From NCBI RefSeq assembly GCF_000341395.1, contig NC_020304.1:2970001-3002000 (forward strand): DNA of 32,000 bases. Reading direction: 5' to 3'. Below are positions 3,660 through 31,463 of this stretch, piece after piece (the first letter of the stretch is position 1; every line of letters starts with the position of its first letter). The DNA comes from Desulfocapsa sulfexigens DSM 10523. Lineage in GTDB: Bacteria; Desulfobacterota; Desulfobulbia; Desulfobulbales; Desulfocapsaceae. The translations under genes and the position numbers were made by a program. Under the pieces are notes generated by a model, which saw only the letters and a list, made by a program, of their open reading frames with translations, searched no databases and was not told the DNA's origin.

Positions 3660-4913
3660 ATGAAGTTATCAGGGTTTGGTGAGCAGTTCACCAGCGGTGC
3701 AGGAATTCTCAGTCTAATGGAAGATCTGGGAAATGCTCTTGCCACCGGCGGTGATGATATGATCATGATGGGTGGTGGTAATCCCGGGCATGTGCCGGGG
3801 TTCCAGGAAGTTATCCAAAAGCGTTTACAGTACCTGGCGCAGGATACACCATCCTTCAAGAAACTTATTGGAGTGTATGATCCCCCGCAGGGAGAGAAGG
3901 ATTTTGTCGATGTTCTGGCGAATCTGCTCAGCCGTGAGTATGGCTGGGAGGTAGGGCCGGAAAATATATGCCTTACAAATGGAAGTCAGGCCGGATTTTT
4001 CCTTCTTTTTAATATGTTTGGCGGACAGTATTCAGACGGTAGTTCAAAAAAAATTCGTTTGCCATTGGCCCCGGAATATATTGGATATGCTGATCTTGGA
4101 ACTAAAAATGAATTTTTTGTTTCCACCCGGCCGCGTATTGAATTGCTCGATGATAATATGTTCAAATATCATGTTGATTTTGACAACCTTCTTGTCGGTT
4201 CGGAGACCGGTGCTCTTTGTGTCTCCCGTCCAACAAATCCCACCGGAAATGTCCTCACTGACGAAGAAATTGCAAAACTTGATGTGTTGGCACGTGAGCA
4301 TGATGTACCGCTAATCCTTGACAACGCCTATGGGGTACCTTTTCCTGGTATCATTTATACGGAAGCGCAACCTGTTTGGAATGAGAATATTATTGTCTGT
4401 CTGTCACTTTCTAAACTTGGGCTGCCAGCTGCCAGAACAGGAATGATTGTTGCTCGTAAAGAAATCATCAAAGCGGTTTCTGGAATGAATGCCATCATGA
4501 ATCTTGCCACTGGAAGTATGGGGGCCATGCTTGCCCATGAGATGGTGGAGAGCGGTGAAGTACTGAATCTGAGCCGTAATGTGATACGGCCATTTTATCA
4601 GGAGAAAATGGAAAAAGCAGTGGCAAATTTCCACGTAGCCCTTGCAGGGACTCCCTATAAGCTCCATAAACCGGAGGGGGCCATGTTTCTCTGGTTATGG
4701 TTCGAAGATCTCCCTATTTCAAGCCATGAGTTGTATCAGCGCTTGAAGGCAAGAAATGTTCTGGTGGTTTCCGGTCATTTCTTTTTCCCAGGACTTGAAA
4801 AGGAATGGCAGCATCAGAATGAATGTATCCGGGTAACCTATTCTCAGGATGAGGCACAGGTCGCTAAAGGTATTCAGATCATTGCAGAAGAAGTAAAGAA
4901 GGCGTATTCCTGA
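3660..4913 (+). CDS. avtA: Valine--pyruvate aminotransferase (class I/II PLP aminotransferase, AvtA-like)
   Basis: Colinear with E. coli AvtA as I remember it: 'FG.{2}FT..SGI..LMEDL', 'GGGNP', 'LAPEYIGYAD', 'FKYHVDF', 'VSRPTNPTGNV', 'DNAYGVPFPGII', PLP lysine context 'LSLSKLGLP', 'HKPEGA.FLWLWF.DLPI'. GGAGGAG RBS upstream. Confidence 0.9.
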   Translation: MKLSGFGEQFTSGAGILSLMEDLGNALATGGDDMIMMGGGNPGHVPGFQEVIQKRLQYLAQDTPSFKKLIGVYDPPQGEKDFVDVLANLLSREYGWEVGPENICLTNGSQAGFFLLFNMFGGQYSDGSSKKIRLPLAPEYIGYADLGTKNEFFVSTRPRIELLDDNMFKYHVDFDNLLVGSETGALCVSRPTNPTGNVLTDEEIAKLDVLAREHDVPLILDNAYGVPFPGIIYTEAQPVWNENIIVCLSLSKLGLPAARTGMIVARKEIIKAVSGMNAIMNLATGSMGAMLAHEMVESGEVLNLSRNVIRPFYQEKMEKAVANFHVALAGTPYKLHKPEGAMFLWLWFEDLPISSHELYQRLKARNVLVVSGHFFFPGLEKEWQHQNECIRVTYSQDEAQVAKGIQIIAEEVKKAYS

Positions 4914-6709
4914 TGGAGAAAAAAAGATTGAATTACAGGGCAAAGGTGAAATTAGCAGGTCTGGTGTTCGCTACCATACTGTTTTGTACTATCACGGCTT
5001 ATGGAGAGTGCTTACAGGGAGACTGTAAAAATGGTGAAGGAGTTCTGGTTCATGAAGATGGCAGACACTACAATGGTTCATTTGAAAAGGGAGCTATACA
5101 TGGAACAGGAGTCTTGAAATTTCCCGATGGGCGTATGTACAGTGGAGAATTTCAAGGGGGAAGGTTTCATGGTAAAGGTGTTCTGACGAGTCCCGATGGC
5201 AGAAGATATGAAGGCGAATTCAGTTCAAATGTGATCCATGGTAAAGGTGTCTTGTCCTATAAGGATGGCACTCGATATGATGGTGATTTTCTCCTTGGAA
5301 AATATCATGGAGATGGTGAACTTACCTATGCGGACGGTCGTAAGTACCTGGGAGAATTTAGAAATGGCTTACTTGAGGGACAGGGAAAGCTGACCTATGT
5401 CAATGGTACTTATTTTGAAGGAGAATTTCACAACGGTCAACCCGCAGGTAAGGGCATTAAAACCTATGTGGGTGGTAGTACGTATATTGGTGAGTTTTAC
5501 GGTGGTGAGCGCCGTGGCTATGGGATATGGAAAGGAACCGACAATAATCGCTATGAAGGTGATTTTGCCAGAGACAGCTATAATGGATATGGCGTTCTGA
5601 TATATGCTGATGGCAGAAAATATACTGGTCAGTTTTTTGATAATTACAGACATGGTGAAGGTGAGCTGATTTACACCGATAAAACCCGATATATCGGACA
5701 ATTCGATCACGGGAAAAAACAGGGGAAGGGGATCGAGTATTATTCTGATTCCAGTCGTTACGAAGGTGAGTTTGAAGCAGATAAGCGCTCTGGTACAGGA
5801 AAACACTTTTACGCAGACGGTTCCGTCTATGATGGAGAATTTCGTGATGGAAAACCGAATGGTTATGGAAAGCTTACCCTAAAGGACAGTAGTGTCTACA
5901 CAGGGCAGTTTGTTGATGGCAGACCTGTGGAAGAAACTCGTCCTGCGGGAGAAGTCATCCCGGTTCCTCCTGTAAAAGAGGTTGTGACTGCGGTCAAAGT
6001 TGAGAAGATAGAGAAAAAGGAGCAGATCGCTGCAGTTCAGCCCTCTTCAAAGCCTGAGGTACCCGTTCTCGTGCCGGATGCGAGCCAGGGGCGATATATC
6101 TATTACAAAGGCAGGGTGTGTCACCTTGGAAACAGAACCCCAGTCAATGGAGTAGTTGAATACCTTTTTGATGATGGAATGTTCTATCGCGGAGAAATGA
6201 AGAAAGGGCTTATGGATGGTAGTGGCGTCATAGAGTATGCCAATGGTGATGTCTATGACGGAGATATAAAAGAGGGTAAACTCCATGGTAGTGGTGTCTA
6301 CAGATATAGTAACGGCAGGCGCTATGAGGGTACATTTGTCCAGGGGGTAAAGGAAGGAACTGGAGTGTTCGCCTATCCCGACGGTTCACGGTATGCTGGA
6401 GAGTTGCAACAGGATCATTTTTCCGGAAAGGGAAGCTATTATTTCAATGATTCCAGTTATTATGAGGGCCAATTTAAGCTGGGCCGTTTTCATGGAAACG
6501 GCAAACTGACATATGCTGATGGAAGTGTTATCAGCGGTGAATTCCAGGATGATATGCCCAATGGAAAAGCAACTCTTGTTTCTGCCGATGGAAGCAGGTA
6601 CGAGGGAGAATTTTCAATGGGACGTCGGAACGGTTTTGGTAAACTGACCACCAGTAAGGGGAAGGTGTATGAGGGTCAGTTTAAGGACGATCAGTTCTTG
6701 CGTCCCTGA
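4913..6709 (+). CDS. Secreted/anchored MORN-repeat protein (13 + 8 repeats)
   Basis: N-terminal hydrophobic signal/anchor 'LAGLVFATILFCTITAYG'. There are 21 copies of the 23-aa MORN unit (Y-x-G-x-F-x(5,6)-G-x-G). A Pro/Val/Glu/Lys linker (aa 338-395) splits them into two arrays. The ATG overlaps the avtA stop (TGATG). Confidence 0.85.
   Translation: MEKKRLNYRAKVKLAGLVFATILFCTITAYGECLQGDCKNGEGVLVHEDGRHYNGSFEKGAIHGTGVLKFPDGRMYSGEFQGGRFHGKGVLTSPDGRRYEGEFSSNVIHGKGVLSYKDGTRYDGDFLLGKYHGDGELTYADGRKYLGEFRNGLLEGQGKLTYVNGTYFEGEFHNGQPAGKGIKTYVGGSTYIGEFYGGERRGYGIWKGTDNNRYEGDFARDSYNGYGVLIYADGRKYTGQFFDNYRHGEGELIYTDKTRYIGQFDHGKKQGKGIEYYSDSSRYEGEFEADKRSGTGKHFYADGSVYDGEFRDGKPNGYGKLTLKDSSVYTGQFVDGRPVEETRPAGEVIPVPPVKEVVTAVKVEKIEKKEQIAAVQPSSKPEVPVLVPDASQGRYIYYKGRVCHLGNRTPVNGVVEYLFDDGMFYRGEMKKGLMDGSGVIEYANGDVYDGDIKEGKLHGSGVYRYSNGRRYEGTFVQGVKEGTGVFAYPDGSRYAGELQQDHFSGKGSYYFNDSSYYEGQFKLGRFHGNGKLTYADGSVISGEFQDDMPNGKATLVSADGSRYEGEFSMGRRNGFGKLTTSKGKVYEGQFKDDQFLRP
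5024..5923 (+). repeat. In-frame tandem array of 13 MORN units (69-bp period) inside the CDS
   Basis: The core recurs every 23 aa: YNGSF, YSGEF, YEGEF, YDGDF, YLGEF, FEGEF, YIGEF, YEGDF, YTGQF, YIGQF, YEGEF, YDGEF, YTGQF. Confidence 0.8.
6146..6688 (+). repeat. Second in-frame tandem array of 8 MORN units
   Basis: YRGEM, YDGDI, YEGTF, YAGEL, YEGQF, ISGEF, YEGEF, YEGQF cores at a 23-aa period. Confidence 0.8.
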
Positions 6710-6733
6710 TCTCTTCGTTTCAAGGAGTGCGAA

Positions 6734-7099
6734 ATGCGATGGAGCTACAAAACAGTACATTTTAGTCTCAAGAAGGAAGGGTTGCTGGGCAGTGCATTCC
6801 TGGATGAAAATGAACTTGAGATTTCTCTCAATGAATATGGTCGTCTCGGGTGGGAACTGGTCTCAATCCAGGAGGTGAATGATGGACTTATTGCAATACT
6901 TAAGCAGCCCTATACTCGGGGACTGCTTTCAGTTGAAGATGAACCAGTTGTAATCTCAAATACAGAGAACCCTTTGCAGCGGCAGGTTGAACTTTCCTCC
7001 TCTGTCTCATCATCGTCGAAGGCCTCCATTAGCAGGGAAGAGGTCGACGAAAGTGTATTGAGTAATGCTAGTGATGTTGGTTCCATCCGGATAATGTGA
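6734..7099 (+). CDS. DUF4177-like small protein with Ser/acidic tail
   Basis: 'W.YKTV......G.......E.E..LNEYG..GWELVS' is the pattern I associate with DUF4177. AAGGAG RBS upstream. The C-terminal half is low-complexity (SSSVSSSSKAS). Confidence 0.65.
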   Translation: MRWSYKTVHFSLKKEGLLGSAFLDENELEISLNEYGRLGWELVSIQEVNDGLIAILKQPYTRGLLSVEDEPVVISNTENPLQRQVELSSSVSSSSKASISREEVDESVLSNASDVGSIRIM

Positions 7100-9474: not shown

Positions 9475-11003
9475 GTAAATATACTAAATCCGTAGTGGCT
9501 TCAGGGCATCCTCTGGTCAGTGAAGCAGCAGCAATTATCCTGAGAGAAGGAGGTAATGCATTTGATGCAGTTGTCGCAGCTGGCTTTGCCTCAAGTGGTG
9601 TTGAACCTGCATTGAACAGTCTGGGTGGTGGCGGTTTGCTTCTTGGCCATTCGGCAGCAAATGGACAGAATCTGTTTTTCGATTTTTTTGTTGATACTCC
9701 CGGGCTTGGTTTGCAAAATCCCGTTGAGAAACCACATTTTTTTCCAGTAACGGTACAGTTTTCTGGAAGCAAACAGGATTTCAATGTGGGGCTTGGCTCG
9801 GTAGCGGTTCCCGGAACCTTAAAAGGACTGCTTCATATCCATAAACGTCTTGGATACATGGACTTAGCCTCGGTTGTGGCACCTGCTGTCCAATATGCAA
9901 AAAAGCATATTCTCAATGTAAAACAGGCTTATTTCTTAAAACTCCTTCGTCCAATCATGACCCTTTCTTCTAAAGGAAGAGAAATATATGAACCTGGAGG
10001 AAGCTACCTTCAGGAAGGCAGCTTCCTCACGAATCCTGAGCTTGCAGCTTTTATAGAACATGTTTCAAGGGATGGCGGTAAAGAGTTTTATAATGGGGAG
10101 ATAGCCAGAAAAATTGGAAAAGAGATGCAGGAAGAAGACGGCCTTCTTACAGTTACCGATCTGGCATCTTTTGAGGTAAGGGAAAGAACCCCTCTGAAGG
10201 TGCCCTTTCGGAAGTATGACTTCTTCACCTCCCCGGCACCCTCAATGGGGGGGGCACTTATCGGGCTATCCTTATCGCTGCAATCGCTATGCACAACAGG
10301 CCAACCCCAATATGCGTTTGGCAGTGGAGAGTATTTGATTCATACGACAGGGCTGATGCAGGAGGTTGAGCGAGTGCGGGAAAAGGGGGTTTTCAATGCC
10401 TCGGATTTAGAGAATTTTTTACGTTCCGACAGGAGTCAAGAGAGCGTTAAACGTATCAGGATGTTCTCTCGTGGAACCACCCATATATCCATAGCTGATA
10501 AGCAGGGGAACTGTGCTTCCATGACCTGTTCAAATGGTGAGGGTGCCGGTTACTTTGCGCCTGGCACCGGCGTGATGCTGAACAACATGATGGGTGAGGA
10601 CGATCTCCACCCTGATGGATTTCATTCCAGTCCTCCCGGACAGCGTGTGGGATCAATGATGTCCCCATCCCTGCTTATTAAAGACAATGAGGTCAAACTT
10701 GTCATTGGCAGTGGTGGCTCAAAACGGATTCGAACTGCAGTCACTCAGGTTCTTGGCCAGATAGTTGATTTTAAGAGGTCTCTTCAAGAAGCGGTTGATG
10801 CTCCACGAATACATTGGGACGGAGAGACTGTCCAGATGGAACCTGGTTTTGCTGAAGATGGCGTTGAAAAATTGAGGGAACATGCCAGCGTGAATGAGTG
10901 GAACTCACAGGGGGTTTATTTTGGAGGAGTTCACGCTGTGATACCTGGAATGGAAGGGGCAGCAGACAAACGACGTGGGGGCAAGGTTCTTGAGATAGTG
11001 TAA
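9465..11003 (+). CDS. ggt: Gamma-glutamyltranspeptidase-family Ntn hydrolase, no signal peptide
   Basis: 'ASGHPL.SEAA..IL..GGNA.DA', autoprocessing/nucleophile Thr context 'SRGTTHISIADKQGN', 'MSP', 'GSGGSKRI', 'D.R..G'. The start overlaps the ybdK stop by 10 nt. The N-terminus runs straight into the mature domain with no hydrophobic leader. Confidence 0.85.
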   Translation: MGMSKYTKSVVASGHPLVSEAAAIILREGGNAFDAVVAAGFASSGVEPALNSLGGGGLLLGHSAANGQNLFFDFFVDTPGLGLQNPVEKPHFFPVTVQFSGSKQDFNVGLGSVAVPGTLKGLLHIHKRLGYMDLASVVAPAVQYAKKHILNVKQAYFLKLLRPIMTLSSKGREIYEPGGSYLQEGSFLTNPELAAFIEHVSRDGGKEFYNGEIARKIGKEMQEEDGLLTVTDLASFEVRERTPLKVPFRKYDFFTSPAPSMGGALIGLSLSLQSLCTTGQPQYAFGSGEYLIHTTGLMQEVERVREKGVFNASDLENFLRSDRSQESVKRIRMFSRGTTHISIADKQGNCASMTCSNGEGAGYFAPGTGVMLNNMMGEDDLHPDGFHSSPPGQRVGSMMSPSLLIKDNEVKLVIGSGGSKRIRTAVTQVLGQIVDFKRSLQEAVDAPRIHWDGETVQMEPGFAEDGVEKLREHASVNEWNSQGVYFGGVHAVIPGMEGAADKRRGGKVLEIV

Positions 11004-11013
11004 TGAGGAGCGG

Positions 11014-11034
11014 GGTGGGTAGAAAGTACCCACC
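11014..11034 (+). other. Perfect 8-bp hairpin just after the ggt stop
   Basis: GGTGGGTA-gaaag-TACCCACC. No T-run follows, so it looks like a 3'-end stabiliser or processing hairpin rather than a terminator. Confidence 0.5.
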
Positions 11035-11082
11035 ATGTTGCCAGGGTGAGTAAAAAAGAATCATTTCTTTCAATGATATATG

Positions 11083-11108
11083 AGCTTTTTCGAAAAGCTT
11101 GCTTTTTT
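11083..11108 (+). terminator. Weak AT-rich intrinsic terminator
   Basis: AGCTTTT-tcg-AAAAGCT followed by tgcTTTTTTgTTTTg. Confidence 0.35.
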
Positions 11109-11210
11109 GTTTTGTTGTTAAAACAGTAGTATATGATTTGTTTTGTAGTTCTGGCATATATCTTGGAATAAAGGATTGAAAATGTACTTCATTTTTCTTC
11201 CCCTCCCTTT

Positions 11211-11355: not shown

Positions 11356-11384
11356 TTGACATATATCAATCGTCCCGCTAGAAT
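11356..11384 (+). promoter_or_regulatory. Sigma70-type promoter driving the riboswitch
   Basis: TTGACA (11356-11361), a 17-nt spacer, then TAGAAT (11379-11384). The predicted start is about 11391, right at the 5' arm of riboswitch P1. Confidence 0.6.
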
Positions 11385-11393
11385 AAGAGTATG

Positions 11394-11554
11394 TTCAGGT
11401 GTCCGTAAAAAGACTGAAAAGGGAACTTCGTGTAAATCGAAGACGGGCCCGCCGCTGTAACCGGAAAATATTCTGCATTTGCCACTGACTTGTTTCTAAT
11501 TAGTTGGGAAGGCGCAGGGTGAGAAGTATCCGGAAGTCAGAAAACCTTCCTGGA
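11394..11554 (+). promoter_or_regulatory. Cobalamin (B12) riboswitch aptamer
   Basis: Core elements appear in the canonical order. 'AAAAGGGAA', then 'CUUCG-UGUAAAU-CGAAG' (the GGUGnAAnUCC-type hairpin), 'GGGCCCGCCGCUGUAA', 'GCCACUG', 'UGGGAAGGCG', and the B12 box 'AGUCAGAAAACCUUCC' (11535-11550). P1 closes as UUCAGG / CCUGGA. Confidence 0.8.
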
Positions 11555-11565
11555 TTAATAGTGGT

Positions 11566-11591
11566 GATTATCGTCGTGGATTATCGATAAT
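11566..11591. promoter_or_regulatory. Fur-box-like hexamer cluster (ATTATC-n7-ATTATCGATAAT)
   Basis: Perfect 12-bp palindrome ATTATCGATAAT (11580-11591) plus a third GATTATC copy at 11566-11572. GATAAT/ATTATC is the classical Fur hexamer. Confidence 0.3.
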
Positions 11592-11616
11592 GAACTTATC
11601 TTGTGGATATATAGGG

Positions 11617-11660
11617 AAATCCTCAGATTTGAATGTAGTGTTCAGTCTGGGGATTTTTTT
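11617..11660 (+). terminator. Intrinsic terminator, candidate riboswitch expression platform
   Basis: AAATCCTCAGA - 18-nt loop - TCTGGGGATTT (11 bp with one G-U), running into a T-tract (GGGGATTTTTTTATT). Confidence 0.6.
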
Positions 11661-11814
11661 ATTCCCAGGCGACTGACCAGGTAATGCCTGAGGAGAAATG
11701 GATTATGACCTTGCGTGAACGGAGTTTGACAAAGATGTATCTGTACCGGATAACTGATTGGGATGCCTTTCAGCGGATAATGCGGAACCTCTTGTAAAAG
11801 AAGAAGATTGCATG

Positions 11815-11855
11815 AAAAAGAGGAGCTTTGTGATGCATTGCAGGCTCCTCTTTTT
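11815..11855. terminator. Bidirectional terminator (feoB 3' end / riboswitch transcript end)
   Basis: AAAAAGAGGAGC - 17-nt loop - GCTCCTCTTTTT. An A-tract and a T-tract flank a GC core. It lies 10 nt beyond the feoB stop. Confidence 0.7.
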
Positions 11856-11865
11856 ATGATTACTT

Positions 11866-14085
11866 CTACCCGAAAAAAGTTCCAATCTGAAAGACAGCTA
11901 CGGAGGCAAGAAAGGCAAATCCAGTATTAAAAGCCATTGAAAAGAAGGCCCATTTCCATGAGGCTTCTTTGGCGATACAGACAACAGTTACAAAACAGGG
12001 AGCGTAGAACATGATGAAGATTAATGCTGATATTGCAACAACGCTGTTCCAGTTTGGGTCCTTCACAAGACGTTGACCGAGGGTGCCCGCATCATCGCTT
12101 TCTATCTCACCCATAGAGTATACCGTACCGAGCGTTGAAATTATCACTTCTTTTGCTGCGAAGCCACCAAGCATTGCAATATTTGTTTTCCAGTCAAAGC
12201 CTGCGTAGCTTGAGACAGGCTCAAAGAACCTGCCAATTTTACCGGCGACTGAATTTCTGAGAGCGGCTGCAGATTCATTCTGATCAATTTTTCTGAGTTT
12301 TTCCAGGAGTTCTGCAGCATCTGCAGAAAGTAATGTTATTTCAGCAGTGATATTTTGGATCTCCTCCTGCACTGTCTTCGGGTAGGTGCTTGTTATCTTA
12401 TCCCGCTCTGTCTGAAAGGTTAGCCGGTCTGACTCCTGAAGACCCGGAAATGTCATCAATGCCCAGAGAAGTATGGATATGGCAAGAATCACTGTTCCCG
12501 CCTTTTTTATATATTGCCAGGTACGCTCCCAGGTGTGAATCAGTAAGCCCTGAAGCGTCGGAAAGCGGTAAGGAGGAAGTTCCATGACAAAGGGAGTGGA
12601 TTCACCCTTAAGTACCGTCATGCGAAGAAATTTTGCTGCCAAAAGGGCAACAAGCCAGGCCAGCATGGTAAAAAGAAACATGTACATGGCCTTGTGGTCG
12701 GAAAAGAATGCACCAATTAAAAGAATAAGAACCGGGACCTTAGCACCACAGTTCATAAAAGGAACGGTAAGCAGAGTGGCCATTCGCTCTTTAGGCGAAC
12801 GCAGTGTTCTGGTGGCCATGACGCCAGGTACGGCGCATCCACCGGCAATACCCCCTGAAACAATAAAGGGCATAACACTTGATCCATGAAGGCCAAATAT
12901 CCGAAATACCCGATCCATCATAAATGCTACTCTTGCCAGATACCCGGAATCTTCGAGCACAGCAATTCCGAAAAACATAAACATGATAAGAGGCACGAAA
13001 CCAAGCACTCCGCCTACACCATCTATAACGCCAGAGATTATCATGGATTTTAACATGCCTTCGGGAAGTGTGTTTTCAACTATCCCTCCAAGCCAGCCAA
13101 ACAATCCTTCCATCCAGGTGACAGGAAGTTCACTCCATGAAAATGTGAATTGATAGAGGCCGAAGAGGATGGCCAGCATAAAGAGCGGGCCAAGCAGACG
13201 ATTTGTTAAAACCTTGTCGATCTTGTCCGAAGTGTATAATCGGTCAATGTCAAATGCGTGGGTCATAACTCCCTGCCTGACTATTGATTTAATAAATCCA
13301 TAACGATGATCTGCGATTATTGCTTCGGGATAAACATCCATGGTCTTAAGCAAATGATCGGATATACTGCCAACGGTTTGTTCAAGCTTTTTTGCAAGTA
13401 AAGGGTCAGCCTCCTGTCCCTTTGTAAGCATCTGATCATCATGCTCAAGGTATTTAATGCCAGTGAAGCGGGGATTGTAATTATTAACAAGAAAGGATGA
13501 TTCATTGATTAGGGTAATGATCTCCATAAGGACCTCATCAAGATCGTCACCATATGAGATGTCTCGTGAAGTCCATATTTTGTCCGATTTGGCAACGTTT
13601 ATTGCCTGTCTGATCAGTTCTTCGGTACCCTCACCGGATCGTGCAACTATCGGTACAACCGTGACCCCGAGAAGCTCGGCAAGTTTCTGCGATTGTATCT
13701 CGATGCCTCTATCTTTCGCCACATCAATCATATTCAGTGCAATGATCAAAGGCACACCCATCTCAAGAAACTGGGTGGTGAGATAGAGGTTTCGTTCGAT
13801 GTTTGATGCGTCGACGATGTTAATAACCACATCGGGTTTCTGTGTTGTCAGGAAGTCACGAGTGACGATTTCTTCAACAGAATAGGCGGTCAGTGAATAG
13901 GTTCCAGGCAGATCTGTGAGTGTAACTTTCTGATCGTCTTGAGTGAAATGGCCTTCTTTATGGGCAACTGTAATGCCGGGATAGTTTCCTACGTGCTGTC
14001 TTGCTCCCGTCAGGCGGTTAAAGAGAGTGGTTTTACCGGCATTCGGGTTGCCGGCCAATGCCATGGTGATTGAATTGTTACTCAT
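11866..14085 (-). CDS. feoB: Ferrous iron transporter FeoB
   Basis: 739 aa. N-terminal G-domain 'LAGNPNAGKTTLFN', 'DLPG.YSL', 'NM.D', followed by a polytopic membrane domain with the gate motifs typical of FeoB. Confidence 0.95.
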   Translation of the reverse strand: MSNNSITMALAGNPNAGKTTLFNRLTGARQHVGNYPGITVAHKEGHFTQDDQKVTLTDLPGTYSLTAYSVEEIVTRDFLTTQKPDVVINIVDASNIERNLYLTTQFLEMGVPLIIALNMIDVAKDRGIEIQSQKLAELLGVTVVPIVARSGEGTEELIRQAINVAKSDKIWTSRDISYGDDLDEVLMEIITLINESSFLVNNYNPRFTGIKYLEHDDQMLTKGQEADPLLAKKLEQTVGSISDHLLKTMDVYPEAIIADHRYGFIKSIVRQGVMTHAFDIDRLYTSDKIDKVLTNRLLGPLFMLAILFGLYQFTFSWSELPVTWMEGLFGWLGGIVENTLPEGMLKSMIISGVIDGVGGVLGFVPLIMFMFFGIAVLEDSGYLARVAFMMDRVFRIFGLHGSSVMPFIVSGGIAGGCAVPGVMATRTLRSPKERMATLLTVPFMNCGAKVPVLILLIGAFFSDHKAMYMFLFTMLAWLVALLAAKFLRMTVLKGESTPFVMELPPYRFPTLQGLLIHTWERTWQYIKKAGTVILAISILLWALMTFPGLQESDRLTFQTERDKITSTYPKTVQEEIQNITAEITLLSADAAELLEKLRKIDQNESAAALRNSVAGKIGRFFEPVSSYAGFDWKTNIAMLGGFAAKEVIISTLGTVYSMGEIESDDAGTLGQRLVKDPNWNSVVAISALIFIMFYAPCFVTVVCIAKEASWKWAFFSMAFNTGFAFLASVAVFQIGTFFG

Positions 14086-16333: not shown

Positions 16334-16769
16334 TATATTTCACTTACTTTATTAGATTCCACAAAGAAACTGAGGGGCAGGGGATATCGTGAAGCCGTCA
16401 TCTGTACTTCCAACCACTGTCATTAGGTGTTGCTAATTTCTTAATCTTGCCAGGATACTCTGTCAAGAGAGATCTGAGAAAAAAGTTGAGTCAGTGAGTG
16501 AGCCTAACTTCTTAAGGATTTATGCGACCGTCTTGGGAGTGGAAAACCTGATTTTTCCATTCTATCCTATTACTGTTCCTGATATAATAGTGTGTGAAGG
16601 TAAGGAATTGCTGCATAATATGTATGAATTGTGCTTAAATTAAACAGCAAGATTGTTTCATTAAACTCTTTTTATGTTGAAACGAATTGCTATTAGGGGT
16701 GACTACTGCCAAAGAATGTTATTGATTTGAAAAGGTTTGCTTATTTCTGGATTGGTGAGGTCGTTTATA

Positions 16770-17924
16770 ATGGGCACAGCAGAAAAATGTATCTGGTACA
16801 TTGAAGGTGGTATGAAGGATGGGAAATGTCTCGATGTCCCTATCCATGTATCACCTTTTTTTATTGGAAGAGATAAGGGGTGTCATCTTAGGGTGAAAGC
16901 TCCAGGTGTATCACGAAAACATGTTCAGCTTGAAGTCAATGGTGAAAAGATTTTTGTTGGAGATATGGGGAGTACCAATGGAACGTTTGTGAATCGTAAC
17001 AAAATTACAAGACAGGTTGAAATCAGATCTGGAGATACTATCCATCTGGGCCAGGAGGAACTCCGCATTACAAGGCGTTGTGATTACAAGAAAAATGATC
17101 CTGTTGCCGATGATATTTTGTATAATTCAACGATTATGATAAATATCAACGATCCGATGTTTGCCCTCAATGACGATTTTGTCCAGCAGGAAAAAGAGTT
17201 CAATCTTATGATAACCAACCGGGAGGTTACCATTGTTTTCCAACCGATAGTTTCCTTGTCTGAGTGCGAGGTTGTCGGTTATGAAGCGCTTGGGCGCGGT
17301 TTCAGAAGCGACCTTCCGGAGTCTCCCTGTGATCTGTTTCGGATCGCCGAAAAACTTGGCAGAGCAAAAGAATTAAGTTCAGTCTTCAGGAGCAGAGCAA
17401 TACAGACTTGTCATGAGCTTCCCGGTGCCCCGTTAATTTTTGTGAATACCCATCCTGTTGAAGACCTGACCACTGGACTTCAAAATAATATTGAAGAGAT
17501 GCGCAGGTTGACTGCTCCCTGGCAGGTGGTACTTGAGGTTCATGAGTCAGCAGTGACTGACACCAGAATGATGCTTGAGCTGAAGGAAATACTTCGAGAT
17601 CATGAAATGTATCTTGCCTATGATGATTTTGGTGCTGGGCAGGCAAGGTGGAATGAACTTGTGGAGGCTCCTCCAGATTATCTCAAATTTGACCTGCAAC
17701 TTATTAGGGACATTCATAAGAAAACAACACAAAAACAGGAAATGGTTCGTAAACTGGTTGATATCTGCCTTGATCAGGGTGCCTATCCATTAGCGGAATG
17801 TGTCGAAAACCATGAAGAACTGGAGGCCTGCAGGCATCTAGGCTTTACTCATGGGCAGGGATGGCTCTTTGGAAAACCAGCCGAAGCATCTTTTTTTGCA
17901 GCTACAAAAAATAAAAAGGCCTGA
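16770..17924 (+). CDS. FHA-domain / EAL-domain protein (putative c-di-GMP phosphodiesterase)
   Basis: FHA: 'FFIGRD..C.L......VSRKH.QL.....I.V.D.GSTNGTFVN'. EAL: 'FQPIV.....VVGYEALGR', 'FVNTHP', 'LEVHES', 'YDDFGAG', 'LKFD', 'AECVE', 'HGQGWLFGKP'. All catalytic signatures are present. The ORF opens with TTG at 16737. I prefer ATG 16770, which has GAGG 9 nt upstream. Confidence 0.85.
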   Translation: MGTAEKCIWYIEGGMKDGKCLDVPIHVSPFFIGRDKGCHLRVKAPGVSRKHVQLEVNGEKIFVGDMGSTNGTFVNRNKITRQVEIRSGDTIHLGQEELRITRRCDYKKNDPVADDILYNSTIMININDPMFALNDDFVQQEKEFNLMITNREVTIVFQPIVSLSECEVVGYEALGRGFRSDLPESPCDLFRIAEKLGRAKELSSVFRSRAIQTCHELPGAPLIFVNTHPVEDLTTGLQNNIEEMRRLTAPWQVVLEVHESAVTDTRMMLELKEILRDHEMYLAYDDFGAGQARWNELVEAPPDYLKFDLQLIRDIHKKTTQKQEMVRKLVDICLDQGAYPLAECVENHEELEACRHLGFTHGQGWLFGKPAEASFFAATKNKKA

Positions 17925-18170
17925 GTTGGTAGTTGTTTTGACTGTACATTCTCGAATTCTATAAGCCTTTAATATGAAGCTTTTATTATAGGTAAAGTGG
18001 TGTATAATAAAGATGTTTCTCAAAATTACCGCTTTTTGTATCTGTTAGCCCTGTAGACGGGGTGTTGCCTGTAGTGAATAATTTGGGAAGTAAGAGATCG
18101 TTTTGGTATACGTTTTTTTTTATAAATAATTAGATAAGAAATCTAAGATAAACTTTTTTAGGAGAACGTC

Positions 18171-19442
18171 ATGAAGAATAGGGCAGTTATTCGTTTTTGG
18201 GCAATGATGACAATCCTGTTTTACAGCACAGCCCTTGCTCAGGCAGGGCAGGTGATAACCCAGGGTGAAAGGTCATGGGCCAAACAAGCTGTGCAGCAGG
18301 AAAAGTCACTAGCTGCCGCCAGTTCCCCGAATTCTATTGCGGTACTTTATTTTAACAACAAGTCTGGTCAGGAAAAATTGAACGCTCTGCAAAAAGGTAT
18401 GGCGGTGATGTTGATTTCTGACCTTTCTAAGGTAGAAGAGATTCAGGTTGTTGAACGGGTGAGAATGCAGGCCCTTCTGGATGAGATGGCTCTGGGAGCT
18501 TCCGGTCTTGTTACTGCAGAGACCGCCCCTAAAGTTGGTAAAATGCTCGGTGCCTCCTATGTGGCAAGTGGAGATATCCTCGGTGGAAATACCCAGGAAA
18601 TTTTAATAGATTCTTCTGTTCTTGAAATAATTTTTGAAACCCTTACTCGGCAGCCCATAGCCAGTGGAGCGCTGGATGAACTCTTCAGGCTGGAAAAAGA
18701 GATCCTCTTCAATATTATTGCTCAGATGAGGGTGACCATTTCTCCGGCAAAAAAAATCGAACTCGAAAAGCCATTATCTGTCAGTACTGCAGCTTTGCTG
18801 GCATTGTTTCTTGGTATTGATTACTCCGACAAGGGACGGTATGCCGAGGCTGCCAATATGTACCAGCAGGCTCTGGTCGAGGATCCTAAACTGGAAATGG
18901 CCAGGAGTGCCTTGCAGGAACTCAGAGCAATGGGACTGTCCACTGCTGAGGAGCTAGCGATAGTGGAGGAAACACCTCCTGCACCTCCTTCTCCAGCTGT
19001 GGAAGCTGAAGGCTCTTCCGTTGGCACTGTTGTTCTGGTTGGTCTGGGTGCCGCAGCCATTGGTGGAGCGGTCTTTGCCTTATCAGGATCAGGTTCCAGT
19101 GATGATAATGGATCATCTGATGTCGTTACACCAGAAGTTGATACCACTGCACCAGTTGCTACCCCATCACCTGGTACCAGTGAAACTCTTGACTGCATGA
19201 GCGGGTCTGTTGCTTTTTCTTTTTCTAAATCGATGTCGGACGCTGGTTCTGCTGAAATCTCTCCTAAGGATTTTGCCGACAGCCAGGGATGGTTCGGGGA
19301 CAGTTATGTTATTTCATGGGGGAATGATACCTCCACGTGCAGTAGCAGTCTAACATCCGTACAAATTACTTTAAGAAATTTTGAAGATACGGACGGAAAC
19401 GCACTGGCTAACCCTACAGTGTTTGATTATTCAGTTGAATAA
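18171..19442 (+). CDS. Secreted CsgG/LpoB-like module + TPR-like + hydrophobic segment + Ig-like C-terminal domain protein
   Basis: Signal peptide 'FWAMMTILFYSTALAQA'. Module 'IAVLYFNNKSG...QVVERVRMQALLDEMALGASGLV..ETAPKVGKMLGASYV.SG'. TPR-like 'GRYAEAANMYQQALVEDP'. Hydrophobic 'VGTVVLVGLGAAAIGGAVFAL'. C-terminal 'VAFSFSKSM......ISW......QITL..FEDTDGNAL' resembles SbsA-type bacterial Ig-like domains. AGGAG RBS upstream. Confidence 0.7.
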   Translation: MKNRAVIRFWAMMTILFYSTALAQAGQVITQGERSWAKQAVQQEKSLAAASSPNSIAVLYFNNKSGQEKLNALQKGMAVMLISDLSKVEEIQVVERVRMQALLDEMALGASGLVTAETAPKVGKMLGASYVASGDILGGNTQEILIDSSVLEIIFETLTRQPIASGALDELFRLEKEILFNIIAQMRVTISPAKKIELEKPLSVSTAALLALFLGIDYSDKGRYAEAANMYQQALVEDPKLEMARSALQELRAMGLSTAEELAIVEETPPAPPSPAVEAEGSSVGTVVLVGLGAAAIGGAVFALSGSGSSDDNGSSDVVTPEVDTTAPVATPSPGTSETLDCMSGSVAFSFSKSMSDAGSAEISPKDFADSQGWFGDSYVISWGNDTSTCSSSLTSVQITLRNFEDTDGNALANPTVFDYSVE

Positions 19443-19460
19443 GCAATACGTCAAATAGAG

Positions 19461-19496
19461 TACCGGATTTCCAGGGGTTGTTGTGGAAATCCGGTA
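19461..19496. terminator. 12-bp perfect hairpin between convergent genes
   Basis: TACCGGATTTCC - 12-nt loop - GGAAATCCGGTA. It sits between the stop at 19442 (+) and the stop at 19508 (-). No strong T-run follows. Confidence 0.55.
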
Positions 19497-19507
19497 TGAA
19501 CTGTATT

Positions 19508-20020
19508 TTAGAAAAGTTGTGCTGTGACAGCTTCAACTGCAGCAAGCAGGGCTGAAACATTATCTGCCCTTATCGTATGGACGCCGGTTCGAACAACCGC
19601 TCCCGATGCGACTTCAATAAGGCGAAGATCGATTCGCAGTTGTTCTCCTACCTGTTGAAATCCACCAAAGACCATAAACTGGGCGCCAAGCAGGCGTCCA
19701 ACCTCAAGTCGGCTTGTCTCATCAACTAGCACAGAACTTCCAAGAGATAATTCCTCCAGTGCCAATACCAATTTTTCACGCTCGACAACGATGCATTCTC
19801 CTGACTCTTTCAGGGTTTCAGCAACCTTTGCGGTGAGGAATTCTTGCATGTCATCCAGGATCTGGTTTTCTGTAACGCTGTAATTCTCCAGATTCCAGAC
19901 TGCAACTACACTGCCACTGCCAAAGTATTCCGGTGTGTATTGTGGCTGTGAACCAGCACAGGCGTTAAGGAACATTGGCAGCAGCGATATGAACAAAAAG
20001 GGCCGCAACAACTTCTTCAT
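19508..20020 (-). CDS. Lipoprotein consisting of one CsgG/LpoB-like module
   Basis: Lipobox 'MFLNAC' (Cys21). Module 'VVAVWNLEN......IVVEREKLVLALEELSLGSSVLVDETSRLEVGRLLGAQFMVFG...LRIDLRLIEV'. The ATG overlaps the upstream stop by 4 nt. Confidence 0.75.
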   Translation of the reverse strand: MKKLLRPFLFISLLPMFLNACAGSQPQYTPEYFGSGSVVAVWNLENYSVTENQILDDMQEFLTAKVAETLKESGECIVVEREKLVLALEELSLGSSVLVDETSRLEVGRLLGAQFMVFGGFQQVGEQLRIDLRLIEVASGAVVRTGVHTIRADNVSALLAAVEAVTAQLF

Positions 20021-21984
20021 GATTTGTTTCCTTCTGTAGTTGTAAAGCTCAGCTTCTCCTGCACCTTGTCATCCTGTTGTAATGGTCGTTTGGCATCACG
20101 AATACTGACAACACTCATATCCGGTTCCACTTGAATGACTTCCAGCATAGCCAGTGTTTGAGGAAGTCCATGCAAGGTTTTACCTTTGTATTGTATTGGT
20201 TCACCTTCCATAATGGCTTCGAAAGATGATCCGAGAACAACCCCCTGATTTGTGCCGATATTGATAACAGCCTGGTCACCAGTGATCTGGACAATGAAAC
20301 CCTGTAGTGGATATTTCTCCATAATAGTCCGTAAAATCTCCTGGGTGACCTTTTCTGTTTCCTCTTCAATATTTCTGGCTCCGGTGGCAAGTTTCCTGGT
20401 TAATACTTTGGGGATAGCGGTTGTTTCGGTATCTATCAGGCGGAGACTCAGTAGAGTCTGGTCAGGCAAATGGAGCAGGGCACCGGTGGAAACGATCTTC
20501 GCGGCAAGAATACGACCGAGTTGGAGGGCGGTTTCCGGGTCAGCAAGTTCCGAAGAACCAAGGTTGAGTTCCTCAAGCAGGCGGTCCATCAGTACACGTT
20601 CCACCACTCGTACCCGTCCCGACTGGTTGAGTTGTTCTGCAAGTTGGGTAGTCAAAACCATTGATAATCCGTCTCGTTCGCTCAACCCTCCTTTTTCGTG
20701 GAAATCTACAAAAGAAAGGACCATTGGCCGTGAAGTCCAGTTATCTTTAGAATTGAAGAAGGGGATTACGGTTTCTTTGGAACGAAAGCGTGTGGCTAAT
20801 TCCTTGACTAATTTGTCGATGCGCTGTTTTTCAGAAGTGTTTTTCTGCAACTCCATCATGTCTTTTGTTTGCCTTGCAAGAACTGCAGAAAACTGGTCGT
20901 TTTTATTAATGGTCATGGCCTGCTGAAACATTTCCATGGCTTTATCAAGTTGCCCTTCTTTCTGGTAGGTCACTCCCTTATTGGACATAGCTACAAGATT
21001 ATAGGGATCAAGTTCTACCGTCTGGTCGTAGTTGATACGTGCCAGATCAAAATTTTCTGTACTGGCATAAAGCCTGCCAAGCTGGTTATGGGCCTCAGCT
21101 TTCTGACTCAGGCTTCCCTCCGGTTTAGTTACGGCCTCCTGATATTCTGCCATTGCTTCTTCTTTCTTATTTTGAGCGTAAAGGATGTCACCTTTAATAA
21201 CATTGACAGCACCACGACCCGGTGCTTTGGTTTCAACCTCGTTGGCTACGGCCATAGCTTTTTCAACATTGCCCTCTCTTGCATAAATTTTAGCAAGACC
21301 CTCTTTTCCGAGAATTTCACCTTCTCCAGGTTCCTGTGCCAGATCGTTAAAAATATCTTCCGCTTTATCTACTTCATCTGCCTTGAGAGCCGCGTAGCCA
21401 TAGACAGTTTTTGCCTCAAAGGAATCCGGGTTGTCGGACTGCACTTCCAGACTGATGGCCTGAGCCAAGAGAGGTTCGTTACGCTGTAATTCTCTTTCAG
21501 CGAGGCTGATCAACATTTTTTCAGTACTTTCTCCTCCTCCCTGAAAGGAATTAATGATCCTGCGTTCTGGTCCCAGGATATAGACTGTTGGAAGAATGAG
21601 TTCTGCGTGATATGTGGAACTGATTCCTTTTTGATCCTGCATCACCGGAAAACCTGCCTTATGGGTTACGATGAAATCTGAAACACTGTTTTTACTGGAA
21701 GTGGTAATACCCCATACCAGCAGGTCTGTATCCTTGAAGGAATTGAGAAGTTTGTTTAGAGTCAACAGTCCTTCCTGGCTGGCAGGAGAACTTGTATCAA
21801 AAAAATAAAGGACTATGAGAGAATGGTCTTTCATAGCTGAAAGTTGATAAGGACGGCCATAAACATCTTCCAGAGTGAAATCAGGGGCGACGTCACCTGG
21901 ATTGAACTGTGCCCGGCTTATTGCCGGATTCGTGAGAAGAAGTAGCAATGCTAAAAAGAGCAAAAGTTTGATTTGGTGGTGCAT
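20017..21984 (-). CDS. Secreted multidomain protein: Cys-less redoxin fold + TPR repeats + CsgG/LpoB-like module + C-terminal beta domain
   Basis: Signal peptide 'LLLFLALLLLLTNPAISRA'. AhpC/TSA-redoxin-like 'APDFTLEDVYG.PY.LS..K....VLYFF' carries 'DTSSPAS' where CxxC is expected. There are at least 5 TPR-like units (aa ~190-370). Module 'MVLSFVDF.....RVVERVLMDRLLEELNLGSSELADPETALQLGRILAAK'. C-terminal 'GFIVQITGDQAVINIGTNQGVVLGS.FE'. Confidence 0.75.
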   Translation of the reverse strand: MHHQIKLLLFLALLLLLTNPAISRAQFNPGDVAPDFTLEDVYGRPYQLSAMKDHSLIVLYFFDTSSPASQEGLLTLNKLLNSFKDTDLLVWGITTSSKNSVSDFIVTHKAGFPVMQDQKGISSTYHAELILPTVYILGPERRIINSFQGGGESTEKMLISLAERELQRNEPLLAQAISLEVQSDNPDSFEAKTVYGYAALKADEVDKAEDIFNDLAQEPGEGEILGKEGLAKIYAREGNVEKAMAVANEVETKAPGRGAVNVIKGDILYAQNKKEEAMAEYQEAVTKPEGSLSQKAEAHNQLGRLYASTENFDLARINYDQTVELDPYNLVAMSNKGVTYQKEGQLDKAMEMFQQAMTINKNDQFSAVLARQTKDMMELQKNTSEKQRIDKLVKELATRFRSKETVIPFFNSKDNWTSRPMVLSFVDFHEKGGLSERDGLSMVLTTQLAEQLNQSGRVRVVERVLMDRLLEELNLGSSELADPETALQLGRILAAKIVSTGALLHLPDQTLLSLRLIDTETTAIPKVLTRKLATGARNIEEETEKVTQEILRTIMEKYPLQGFIVQITGDQAVINIGTNQGVVLGSSFEAIMEGEPIQYKGKTLHGLPQTLAMLEVIQVEPDMSVVSIRDAKRPLQQDDKVQEKLSFTTTEGNKS

Positions 21985-22014
21985 GAGATCCTCCGTGTTG
22001 AATGTGTTTGTCAG

Positions 22015-23664
22015 CTATTCTGGTAAAAGAGAGATGGAGAGTGGAACCAGTCCTCCCTTGCTGAGGTTCAGCTGGGCCTGCCAGTTAAGATGTCCCTGCA
22101 GTTCAAGTTTCACCTCATGTTTTATTGCTGTAACCTCAATCTCCAGGGGGGTTAATCCATGATAGTTCCCGTCTATGTAGAGGCTTGCTCCAGATGGACT
22201 GCTGTTTATTTGTAAGGTTGTTATTTTTTTCTGGATATCGGAATTCTCTTCTTTTCCTATTGGTGGTAGTGAGGCTACTACTGTACCAGGCGTAATTGGT
22301 GACGAAGGTTTTAAGCTGCCATCTGGCTCAATTCCCAGTTCAACTTTTGTCAAGGAAGCTGGTTTCGTGGCAGTTTCAGGCTCGTTTGTGGAGGGAAAAA
22401 TTGGTGCATTCTCTCTGTCATCTGTAAAAAGATCGTCAAACGACTCTTCGACCCGTTGTGCCTGCAACGTTTCTTTTTTTATTTCTGGTACTGCATCGGG
22501 TACGGGAGAGGCTTCTTCAGAATCAGGTGATATAACGGGTGTGGGTGCCACAGATGATTGGGGGACGGAAGGTACATAAATCGGGGCAAGTGGTTCTTCA
22601 GGTTTACTTGGTAGTACTACCGGAGGAACGGGTGTGGTCTCCTCATCTTGCACAGCAATGTGCGAGGGCTGTTCCGATATTGCGGCCGTATTTTTTTGTT
22701 GCTGGACATCATCTGCTGTAGGTGGCCTCATGGTGAGATAAGCGACCAGGGCAGCTCCGCAGAAGAGGAGAGCGGTCGCTATCATAAAGCCGTTATAAGA
22801 ACGCCGTTTTTCAGGTGCTGTCTGAATAATTGTTTCGCTAAAAGATTCCTGAGATTGAACATTAAGACAGTTGCCAAGAAGTTCTGACATCTCCTGGCCA
22901 CTGCGGAATCGATCTTCAGGTTTTCTGGCCATGGCTTTCAGGATCAGCTTTGAGAGAGCCGGGGGGATATCAGGGTTGAGCTGATCCGGTGGAACAGGAT
23001 CATCCTGGGTGATGGCTCTAAAGACGGCAGTGAGGTTCTCACCCTTGAATGGACGATGACCTGTGGTGAGCTCATAGAGAATGACACCTAAAGAGTAAAG
23101 ATCGGATCGACCATCAACGGTTTGTCCCATGACCTGCTCAGGGGCCATATAGACAGGGGTACCAAGGATCTCACCGGCTCGAGTCATCTGCTGACCATCC
23201 GGATCATCGATATGGGCAATCCCAAAGTCTGTTACCTTAAGAATATTTTCAGGAGTACAGATAATATTTGGCGGTTTGATATCACGGTGAATGATCCCTC
23301 TTGTATGTGCATAATGGAGGGCCTGGGCTATCTGTATTCCGATATCAACGATGTCGGTCAGGCTTAAATTGCCAGCTTTGACCAGTTGATCCATGGATTG
23401 CCCTTCCAGAAATTCCATCGCAATGTAGATGGTGCCGTGATCCTGGCCAATATCATAGACTGTCACTATGCCTGGATGGGAGAGTCGTCCAATGGCGGTA
23501 GCTTCTTTGAGAAAACGCTGCACGTAGTCCTCGGTGGTAAGTCGATCTTCACGAAGTACCTTCAGTGCCACCATACGGTTAATCTGAGGGTCATGGGCCT
23601 GATAAACCTTACCCATGGCACCTCTACCGAGTTCGGAAACGATTTCATACCTACCGTATTTCAT
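22015..23664 (-). CDS. Hanks-type Ser/Thr protein kinase with TM helix and periplasmic PEGA domain (PpkA analogue)
   Basis: 'LGRGAMGKVY', 'VALKVL', 'HRDIKPPNI', 'DFGIA', 'GTPVYMAPEQ', 'D.YSLGV.LYE'. TM 'FMIATALLFCGAALVAYLTM'. Pro-rich linker. C-terminal PEGA 'LQINSSPSGASLYIDGNYHGLTPLEIEV'. Confidence 0.9.
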   Translation of the reverse strand: MKYGRYEIVSELGRGAMGKVYQAHDPQINRMVALKVLREDRLTTEDYVQRFLKEATAIGRLSHPGIVTVYDIGQDHGTIYIAMEFLEGQSMDQLVKAGNLSLTDIVDIGIQIAQALHYAHTRGIIHRDIKPPNIICTPENILKVTDFGIAHIDDPDGQQMTRAGEILGTPVYMAPEQVMGQTVDGRSDLYSLGVILYELTTGHRPFKGENLTAVFRAITQDDPVPPDQLNPDIPPALSKLILKAMARKPEDRFRSGQEMSELLGNCLNVQSQESFSETIIQTAPEKRRSYNGFMIATALLFCGAALVAYLTMRPPTADDVQQQKNTAAISEQPSHIAVQDEETTPVPPVVLPSKPEEPLAPIYVPSVPQSSVAPTPVISPDSEEASPVPDAVPEIKKETLQAQRVEESFDDLFTDDRENAPIFPSTNEPETATKPASLTKVELGIEPDGSLKPSSPITPGTVVASLPPIGKEENSDIQKKITTLQINSSPSGASLYIDGNYHGLTPLEIEVTAIKHEVKLELQGHLNWQAQLNLSKGGLVPLSISLLPE

Positions 23665-25339: not shown

Positions 25340-25680
25340 GCAGCCGAATCCTCTCGATGAGAGTATATAAAAATGAAGCTAATCGTGTTTTCCGTGCGAG
25401 CGGATAATGTATTCTTTTTCTATAGTATGAAAAAGACTCCTTAAGTGCGAATTCTATCGAAAAAAAGCTTTAAGATCAATATGATTTTGATATGATATGG
25501 AAGAAGAGGGAAATGATCCTTGCACCTGTTTCAGTCCTGACCTTTATGGGTGTAAAGATACCAACCGAATTATCCGTATTGATCTTAACGGAGCAGAAGT
25601 ATCCGTGTGTACGTGGCAGGAAGGACTGTTTGAGGCGAACGTGAATATGTTATATGTTGAATACCCTATTGTAATAACAA

Positions 25681-26703: not shown

Positions 26704-26793
26704 CTATCTTGTTTTTGAGATCTACTCAAAATGTACCGTGTAACAAATACAATATCTCCGTCAGTTCAAGAATAACTCAGCAAGGAGGCCTGC

Positions 26794-28362: not shown

Positions 28363-28407
28363 CCCGTTGTTCGGCTCCAGTTTTTTACCACTGAGAGTAA
28401 ATGAGAA

Positions 28408-29175: not shown

Positions 29176-29200
29176 AGTATTTTCTCTTTTGTGTTGTAGG

Positions 29201-29980: not shown

Positions 29981-29987
29981 GGTATTC

Positions 29988-31454: not shown

Positions 31455-31463
31455 ATCAATTGA

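Follow-up and report, generated by a model that had tools for sequence, protein, structure and literature searches.

Cobalamin riboswitches usually precede btuB, btuFCD, cob/cbi, metE or nrd genes, and the genes that riboswitches control are a reliable guide to the physiology of the ligand. EutX of Enterococcus faecalis and Rli55 of Listeria monocytogenes are stand-alone B12 riboswitches whose transcript is short or long according to B12; their long forms are non-coding and carry tandem hairpins that sequester the ANTAR regulator EutV. Small proteins of metal or nutrient limitation are exemplified by MntS (42 aa) and MgtS (31 aa) of Escherichia coli, both of which are under protein regulators. 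Short translated ORFs under B12 riboswitches upstream of metE and ppe2 are described for Mycobacterium tuberculosis in PMC11260477, according to which each lies right after or within the B12 leader, the riboswitch interacts with ribosome access, and the short ORFs act in cis on the large MetE or PPE2 gene, partly through termination-reinitiation. A survey of antisense-acting riboswitches, AspocR among them, counts 190 cobalamin cases (PMC9943018).

Here, we characterized a cobalamin riboswitch locus of Desulfocapsa sulfexigens within a 32-kb window (the whole stretch of DNA analyzed, 32,000 nt), in which RF00174 is the only Rfam family reaching threshold. The earlier note on this DNA had taken the riboswitch for an orphan that lacks any gene to control. 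The features of the locus are as follows.

11356–11384, plus strand: sigma-70-type promoter (TTGACA at 11356–11361, 17-nt spacer, TAGAAT at 11379–11384)
11380–11567, plus strand: cobalamin riboswitch aptamer, RF00174 (105 bits against a gathering threshold of 31.5, E = 1.5e-25)
11565–11592, plus strand: hairpin 3' of the aptamer at the P13 position, with the conserved loop UCGUGGAUUA (stem 11569–11573 with 11585–11589)
11597–11609, plus strand: near-invariant linker, consensus GATCTTGTGGATA, candidate antiterminator strand (invariant columns in platform alignment A2)
11617–11660, plus strand: terminator T1 of the expression platform (5' arm about 11617–11629, 3' arm about 11644–11656, then U7)
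11662–11670, plus strand: switching segment C, UUCCCAGGC, just 3' of the U-tract, able to pair with the T1 3' arm or the Shine-Dalgarno (SD) region
11686–11695, plus strand: SD region (GCCU, then GAGGAG; SD at 11690–11695)
11705–11797, plus strand: small protein gene (sORF) of 30 codons and a stop, MTLRERSLTKMYLYRITDWDAFQRIMRNLL, with GAGGAG 9 nt before the ATG
11815–11855, both strands: terminator hairpin T2 (z = −4.5 on the plus strand, −4.2 on the minus strand)
11866–14085, minus strand: feoB (Pfam FeoB_N, Gate and FeoB_C), its 3' end at 11866 convergent with the riboswitch unit

Every feature that the earlier note had read from the letters held up. The promoter matches 11 of 12 consensus positions and is conserved in relatives, where the −35 TTGACA is invariant, the 17-nt spacing is kept over an unconserved spacer sequence, and the −10 element takes the form TAnnnT. 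Both bounding terminators are present, the sORF sequence translates as had been stated and has the SD at the distance given, and the gene on the opposite strand is indeed the 3' end of feoB. The claim that no B12 gene lies in cis also stands: Pfam scans found no B12 transport or biosynthesis family among 25 long ORFs in the 32-kb window (plus one overlapping, probably spurious ORF), two real-looking ORFs having no Pfam match. Upstream of the unit, a gamma-glutamyltranspeptidase (GGT) gene ends with a terminator of its own; the metal-transport genes nearby are feoAB and a CDF exporter. In our reading, to which we assign a probability of roughly 85%, the promoter, cobalamin riboswitch, terminator platform, SD, 30-codon gene and second terminator form a self-contained transcription unit that is regulated by B12.

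We examined the aptamer by running cmsearch, the check that had been proposed for it. The window sequence aligns to the full RF00174 model (positions 1–189 of 189) at a score well over the gathering threshold, and orthologous aptamers in relatives score 74–120 bits where uninterrupted; low scores were seen in L008 (37 bits), where an insertion disrupts the aptamer, and L092 (33 bits), where a contig end cuts the copy. The stem at the P13 position was 99% paired in an alignment of 21 platforms, with compensatory changes in four of its five pairs, and this hairpin is, by comparison with the riboswitch family, the putative kissing-loop partner. Judged by its fit to the model, the aptamer is an ordinary RF00174 member. 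As in canonical cobalamin riboswitches, the full-length aptamer is followed by a hairpin and U-tract, and an OFF switch is expected; a terminator with alternative pairings, the expression platform looked for in this class, is present. The locus differs from the canonical case in that the sole controlled gene is a stand-alone 30-codon ORF without a recognizable link to B12, and in that the terminator is apparently joined to a helix that masks and unmasks the SD. A gene for B12 transport or synthesis, or for a B12-independent isozyme, is the usual target of the class but not a defining one, and it is not what this unit carries.

We then surveyed the distribution of the unit, using FeoB as an anchor to collect 80 related genome loci, all from Desulfobulbales, of which the closest were Desulfocapsa metagenome-assembled genomes (FeoB identity 78–86%). 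A cobalamin aptamer convergent to the feoB 3' end was found in 16 of these 80 loci. BLAST revealed that the stretch after terminator T1 is conserved as well, and tblastn placed this conservation at the protein level. A riboswitch, detected by Rfam or BLAST, was found in all 16 genome loci bearing the sORF, and a metagenome scan with the peptide alignment yielded 18 further loci, 16 of which have RF00174 directly 5' of the sORF (33–120 bits). L098 keeps a T1-like terminator, its contig ending before an aptamer could appear; in L096, a divergent homologue, no riboswitch was detected in the 517 nt upstream of the sORF. When about 1.3 Mb of related sequence was searched with a profile built from the 24 distinct peptides, every positive locus gave exactly one hit and the remaining sequence gave none. 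The unit is absent from the 336 nt available downstream of feoB in a close relative (L002), and in more distant Desulfobulbales the riboswitch and the sORF are both missing and feoB directly abuts the gene that follows. So far, judging from these sequence searches, the 30-aa protein appears confined to Desulfocapsa-type sulfur bacteria. One locus that does not carry the unit, L016, has an aptamer directly before a 729-aa ORF, the ordinary layout of a cobalamin riboswitch.

The neighborhood of the unit changes from lineage to lineage. On the promoter side we found GGT, DUF4177, DUF900, a two-component system with a sigma-54 activator, an ABC importer, or Metal_resist with a PocR-domain kinase (Metal_resist in L003). 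A recurrent B12-related gene upstream of the unit was sought across lineages and none was found, these neighbors being uninformative. The proposed adjacency of riboswitch and feoB, suggested for testing alongside conservation of the sORF, held in most loci, with two other settings observed: in L088/L089 the unit has a DUF900 hydrolase on one side and, on the other, a DAO oxidoreductase that converges on it, and in L085 a Ppx/GppA gene adjoins it and a transposase-like ORF lies some 3 kb off. Neither setting includes feoB. Conservation of the sORF itself was borne out in 34 loci. Since the riboswitch–sORF pair occurs away from feoB, these results indicate a self-contained, autonomous unit.

Next to the window copy, the sORF is represented by these 34 related loci with one copy each, amounting to 24 distinct peptides. 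The frame is open in every locus, and its length is 30 codons except in four loci, where 31, 33 or 51 codons make up three distinct variants; among the genome sequences, 16 of 17 have exactly 30. GAGGAG or GGAGG ends 5–10 nt before the ATG in every homologue. An upstream in-frame ATG exists at 11684, and L009 has an in-frame stop between it and the conserved Met, which excludes that codon and places the start at 11705. Pairwise comparison gave a mean pN of 0.214 and a mean pS of 0.771 (pN/pS = 0.28), with pN below pS in 136 of 136 pairs, values that come from 30 codons only and from related, non-independent sequences. Variable columns numbered 19, 15 and 27 at the first, second and third codon positions, so that 27 of the 30 codons differ at their third position; the shifted frames gave pN/pS ratios of 1.1 and 1.4, and nearly all sequences have stops in them. 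In the 17 peptides first aligned, nine residues never change (M1, E5, K10, D18, W19, D20, Q23, R27 and L30), and the tblastn consensus reads M-x-x-R-E-[RK]-S-L-T-K-M-x-L-x-[RQ]-x-[TK]-D-W-D-x-F-Q-x-x-M-R-x-L-L-stop. Conserved length, start codon, ribosome-binding site and codon-patterned substitution, the marks of a small gene, are all found here; by this pattern of change, the sORF is a genuine protein-coding gene under purifying selection. The description of the riboswitch as lacking a gene to control is accordingly contradicted by 24 versions of a protein kept under purifying selection. A parallel to such an arrangement, the short ORFs of M. tuberculosis, differs from it: here the sORF precedes no gene that it could act on in cis and is followed by a terminator and a convergent gene, and its amino-acid sequence is itself under selection.

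Detailed investigation of the expression platform was based on an alignment of 21 sequences (A2), in which we counted pairing fractions and compensatory pairs. T1 folds at −23.7 kcal/mol (z = −5.5 against shuffled controls), and its helix is 92.8% paired across the 21 sequences with 3 compensatory pairs. A consensus terminator scan missed T1 and T2 solely for their loops of more than 8 nt. An A-tract and a T-tract flank T2 from opposite sides, so it looks bidirectional and, to judge from its sequence, able to end both the sORF transcript and the convergent feoB transcript. At the T2 position, a strong hairpin of unrelated sequence (−24.6 to −47 kcal/mol) occurs in 15 of the 17 sequences examined; the exceptions are L006, where it is weaker (−18.6 kcal/mol), and L013, where it is masked by N. 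The T2 hairpin of some relatives, L009 for example, has no clear U-tract.

Segment C can enter two helices. Paired cells make up 97% of its helix with the T1 3' arm (4 compensatory pairs) and 82% of its helix with the SD region (2 compensatory pairs). Furthermore, a three-way covariation was observed at columns 100, 123 and 149 of the platform alignment, where a U-to-C change in the T1 3' arm is accompanied by A-to-G changes in both the T1 5' arm and segment C. Taken as an alignment signal, the covariation is support for T1 and for the competing, mutually exclusive helix between its 3' arm and segment C, and it points to control at both the transcriptional and the translational level. The same two states came out when the window sequence was folded: with the terminator intact, segment C is paired to the SD region; once the T1 5' arm is removed, it goes to the 3' arm and GAGGAG is free. 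In minimum free energy folds with the terminator intact, the SD was at least three-quarters paired in 13 of 21 sequences; with the 5' arm removed it was fully free, likewise in 13 of 21, a clean SD-masking switch being predicted in only about half of the relatives. The platform thus seems, from alignment and folding, to couple termination with SD masking in a compact four-strand design.

The remaining strand is the linker. Its pairing with the T1 5' arm holds in 98% of cells, compared with at most 62% when the register is slid; the helix is weak at −5 to −8 kcal/mol, a range that shuffled sequences reach as well, and carries no informative covariation. As the helix is invariant, covariation neither supports nor rejects the linker, which we regard as the probable antiterminator.

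We propose the following course of switching. When B12 is plentiful, the ligand-bound aptamer would favor T1, and the transcript would end at about 270 nt; in any RNA that reads through, segment C would pair with the SD region and mask the SD as a fail-safe. When B12 is scarce, the T1 5' arm would be captured, with the invariant linker GAUCUUGUGGAUA as the probable partner. The 3' arm, thus released, would pair with segment C, the SD would be exposed, and a transcript of about 465 nt could yield a peptide of 30 residues, net-basic (+3) and of non-membrane type. We infer an OFF switch with a safety catch, its direction taken by analogy from characterized cobalamin riboswitches. On this scheme, the peptide is proposed to be a product of B12 limitation.

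The earlier note had left two readings side by side, a B12-dependent regulatory RNA and a B12-controlled micropeptide, of which the second is favored by the conserved coding frame, start and SD, and the first is disfavored by the finding that the segment is coding. A long transcript acting in trans as a B12-gated regulatory RNA in the manner of EutX/Rli55, with an incidental or dual-function sORF, would account for a riboswitch that stands alone and whose short and long transcript forms are delimited by two terminators; we nonetheless hold it to be quite improbable, as 11705–11797 is conserved by codon pattern, with pN/pS well below that of the shifted frames and with frame, length and SD kept. 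The likeness to EutX/Rli55 drawn in the note also fails on structure: where their long forms rely on tandem hairpins, the long form here is a predicted mRNA, and a scan for ANTAR-type hexaloops, with A at loop position 1 and G at position 4, across 11560–11865 returned one 3-bp stem inside the P13-like hairpin and no tandem pair. Conservation of the non-coding stretch 11660–11704, which might otherwise speak for an RNA function, is explained by the helix that masks and unmasks the SD. A decaying remnant, in which a downstream B12 gene was deleted and the sORF is a chance frame or gene fragment, had been raised as well and fits the lack of a B12 gene in cis in the window. It is barely credible given that promoter, aptamer, terminator, SD and the selected 30-codon frame are all intact, that relatives show the unit conserved across lineages whose FeoB is only 69–86% identical to that of the window, and that phmmer found no longer protein containing the peptide.

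Position relative to feoB invites a further comparison. As with AspocR, the riboswitch faces a convergent gene at its 3' end, an arrangement kept in most loci, and its own gene is unannotated. Low-B12 read-through might then repress feoB by collision or duplex formation, as AspocR does with pocR. Some read-through is conceivable in relatives whose T2 is without a clear U-tract, and antisense cobalamin riboswitches are numerous in the published survey (PMC9943018). The locus departs from the AspocR type in the terminator hairpin that intervenes between sORF and feoB in 15 of 17 sequences (in the window with a U-tract on both strands), in its conserved sORF, and in the retention of riboswitch and peptide where feoB is missing (L088/L089 and L085). 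Antisense action also leaves selection on the peptide sequence unexplained, and we consider it very improbable as the function of the unit; control of feoB by this route would be a secondary effect at best. The link to the iron-uptake operon drawn in the earlier note is weak for the same reasons, the unit standing beside unrelated genes as well. We therefore retain the B12-regulated protein-coding unit as the preferred reading.

We examined the nature of the encoded peptide by database searches and structure prediction. Pfam and NCBIfam scans of three peptides gave no match at E values up to 10. An exhaustive phmmer search with the 30-aa query against 1.84 billion representatives recovered the window's own ORF alone, as a 37-aa version with the wrong start, and this single query revealed no wider family. 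A 15-billion-protein collection contains that mis-started version but not the exact 30-aa sequence. None of the family entries found in that collection is named. A profile search of the PDB returned an 11-residue match, VEDWDSFQAIL, to actin-like protein 6A (E about 0.2), which was taken as chance. AlphaFold, given this one sequence, predicted one helix (pLDDT 85), a model that is weak evidence since the helical moment of the whole peptide is no better than that of shuffles. Of the 30 residues, 9 are charged, and the net charge is +3. The lack of any hydrophobic stretch makes a membrane peptide unlikely, and the lack of conserved cysteines and of modifying enzymes nearby makes a RiPP precursor unlikely. 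A search of the literature found no description of the peptide or of the riboswitch–sORF arrangement.

By analogy with other bacterial small proteins, the peptide most likely binds a larger partner, which is a guess. The recurring metal-transport surroundings (feoAB, the CDF exporter, and Metal_resist in L003) suggest cobalt or iron handling, an idea weakened by the copies away from feoB. One version of it, which we consider unlikely, is that the peptide is a B12-starvation signal acting post-translationally on metal transport, binding FeoB, the CDF exporter or another transporter and raising cobalt; if true, it would be a riboswitch-controlled counterpart of MntS that ties B12 status to metal trafficking, with the cobalt serving corrin synthesis. 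On this proposal, the peptide would share with MntS and MgtS the character of a tiny, non-enzymatic protein made under micronutrient scarcity and encoded near transporter genes. The comparison is a lead only: there is no sequence similarity, and regulation is by a riboswitch here and by protein regulators there.

With an ordinary aptamer, the locus is unusual in its cargo, a strongly conserved gene of 30 codons that stands alone, and in the way terminator and SD mask appear to be coupled; the four-strand platform is suited to mechanistic study. What looks like a gene-less or antisense riboswitch can be regulating, in cis and in the ordinary way, an ORF that annotation passes over for its shortness. 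The survey cited above would probably class loci of this kind as antisense (PMC9943018), so hidden sORFs may explain some of its cases, and unannotated micropeptide genes may lie behind many riboswitches now called "orphan" or "antisense-acting". For the sulfur-cycling anaerobes in which the unit is found, a 30-residue protein with a B12 riboswitch as its sole recognizable regulator would be an unseen part of the response to B12 limitation.

Examination of the window at 11545-11695 revealed that a CUG(G/A)GGAU-like core is common to the 3′ strand of P1, the invariant linker (11597-11609), the 3′ arm of terminator T1 and the SD region (11686-11695), and that a complementary AUCCCAG-like core occurs in the 5′ strand of P1, the 5′ arm of T1 and segment C (11662-11670). 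These two cores constitute a chain of interchangeable pairing partners, and this chain might relay the state of the aptamer to the SD.

We observed related insertions of approximately 190-240 nt in the riboswitch leaders of two related loci, each at a different leader site:

L008:5797-6036, insertion in the riboswitch leader, copy 1
L011:6097-6285, insertion in the riboswitch leader, copy 2

Both contain AGGGTnnCTTGAAAAATT...GTTCAAnATCnAGGCAT...CGAAAAGnCAATTTT, and they appear to represent a small MITE-like mobile element. The L008 copy lies in the variable hairpin of the aptamer, where the RF00174 score falls to 37 bits; the L011 copy is placed between aptamer and platform, and is absent from the sister locus L010. 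The sORF is uninterrupted at both loci. A third related locus, L012, carries an insertion of approximately 190 nt at the same site as that of L011 but unrelated to it.

The gene order aminotransferase, MORN-repeat protein and DUF4177, convergent with feoAB, was found in the window (3660-7099) and at loci L013-L069, and is kept across much of Desulfobulbales, with M20 peptidase, GCS2 and GGT genes as optional insertions. The MORN-repeat protein has 598 aa and 10 MORN repeats. At L003 (10911-15389), the riboswitch-sORF unit adjoins a gene for a Metal_resist (ZraP/Spy-like) protein and lies beside one for a PAS histidine kinase of 1186 aa that carries a PocR sensory domain at its N-terminus. The coincidence is curious, since in Listeria an antisense RNA under a B12 riboswitch targets pocR.

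Elsewhere, the window holds a signalling and envelope gene cluster, which is reminiscent of a contractile or secretion system under kinase control, and a 128-aa ORF that gave no match in a Pfam search and is probably spurious:

Window 16737-31871, cluster members, part 1: FHA-EAL; CsgG/TPR lipoprotein-like proteins; Ser/Thr kinase with PEGA domain; PP2C phosphatase
Window 16737-31871, cluster members, part 2: trypsin-like protease; FHA proteins; VipB-like sheath-domain protein; FHA-SLT; PAAR-like toxin-domain protein
Window 10771-11157, minus strand: 128-aa ORF, overlapping the GGT 3′ end on the opposite strand

L002 (10217-10553) comes from a close relative, whose FeoB is 83% identical to that of the window. 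In the 336 nt of available sequence beyond its feoB, neither sORF nor riboswitch was found, only a different terminator. The unit may have been lost or relocated in this lineage.

Two further loci encode homologues of the peptide. The one at L098 (150-366) is lengthened at its C-terminus to a total of 51 aa (MTANEQAYCKITLFQLKDWDSFQIAMRGCLRRMEGKEAAAQGEGNQSERL). A terminator built like T1 lies upstream of it, and the gene that it converges with encodes an aminotransferase instead of FeoB; this contig is too short for an upstream aptamer to be visible. L096 (300-610) encodes a divergent homologue, MTVREQTISKMTIFQIKDWDVFQLVMRGAL, with no riboswitch in the 517 nt upstream of its sORF. In place of the riboswitch, this upstream region carries a TTGACA promoter-like site and two copies of a direct repeat, CTGTATATTGTGTT, an arrangement suggesting that in the L096 lineage the peptide homologue is under the control of a protein regulator.
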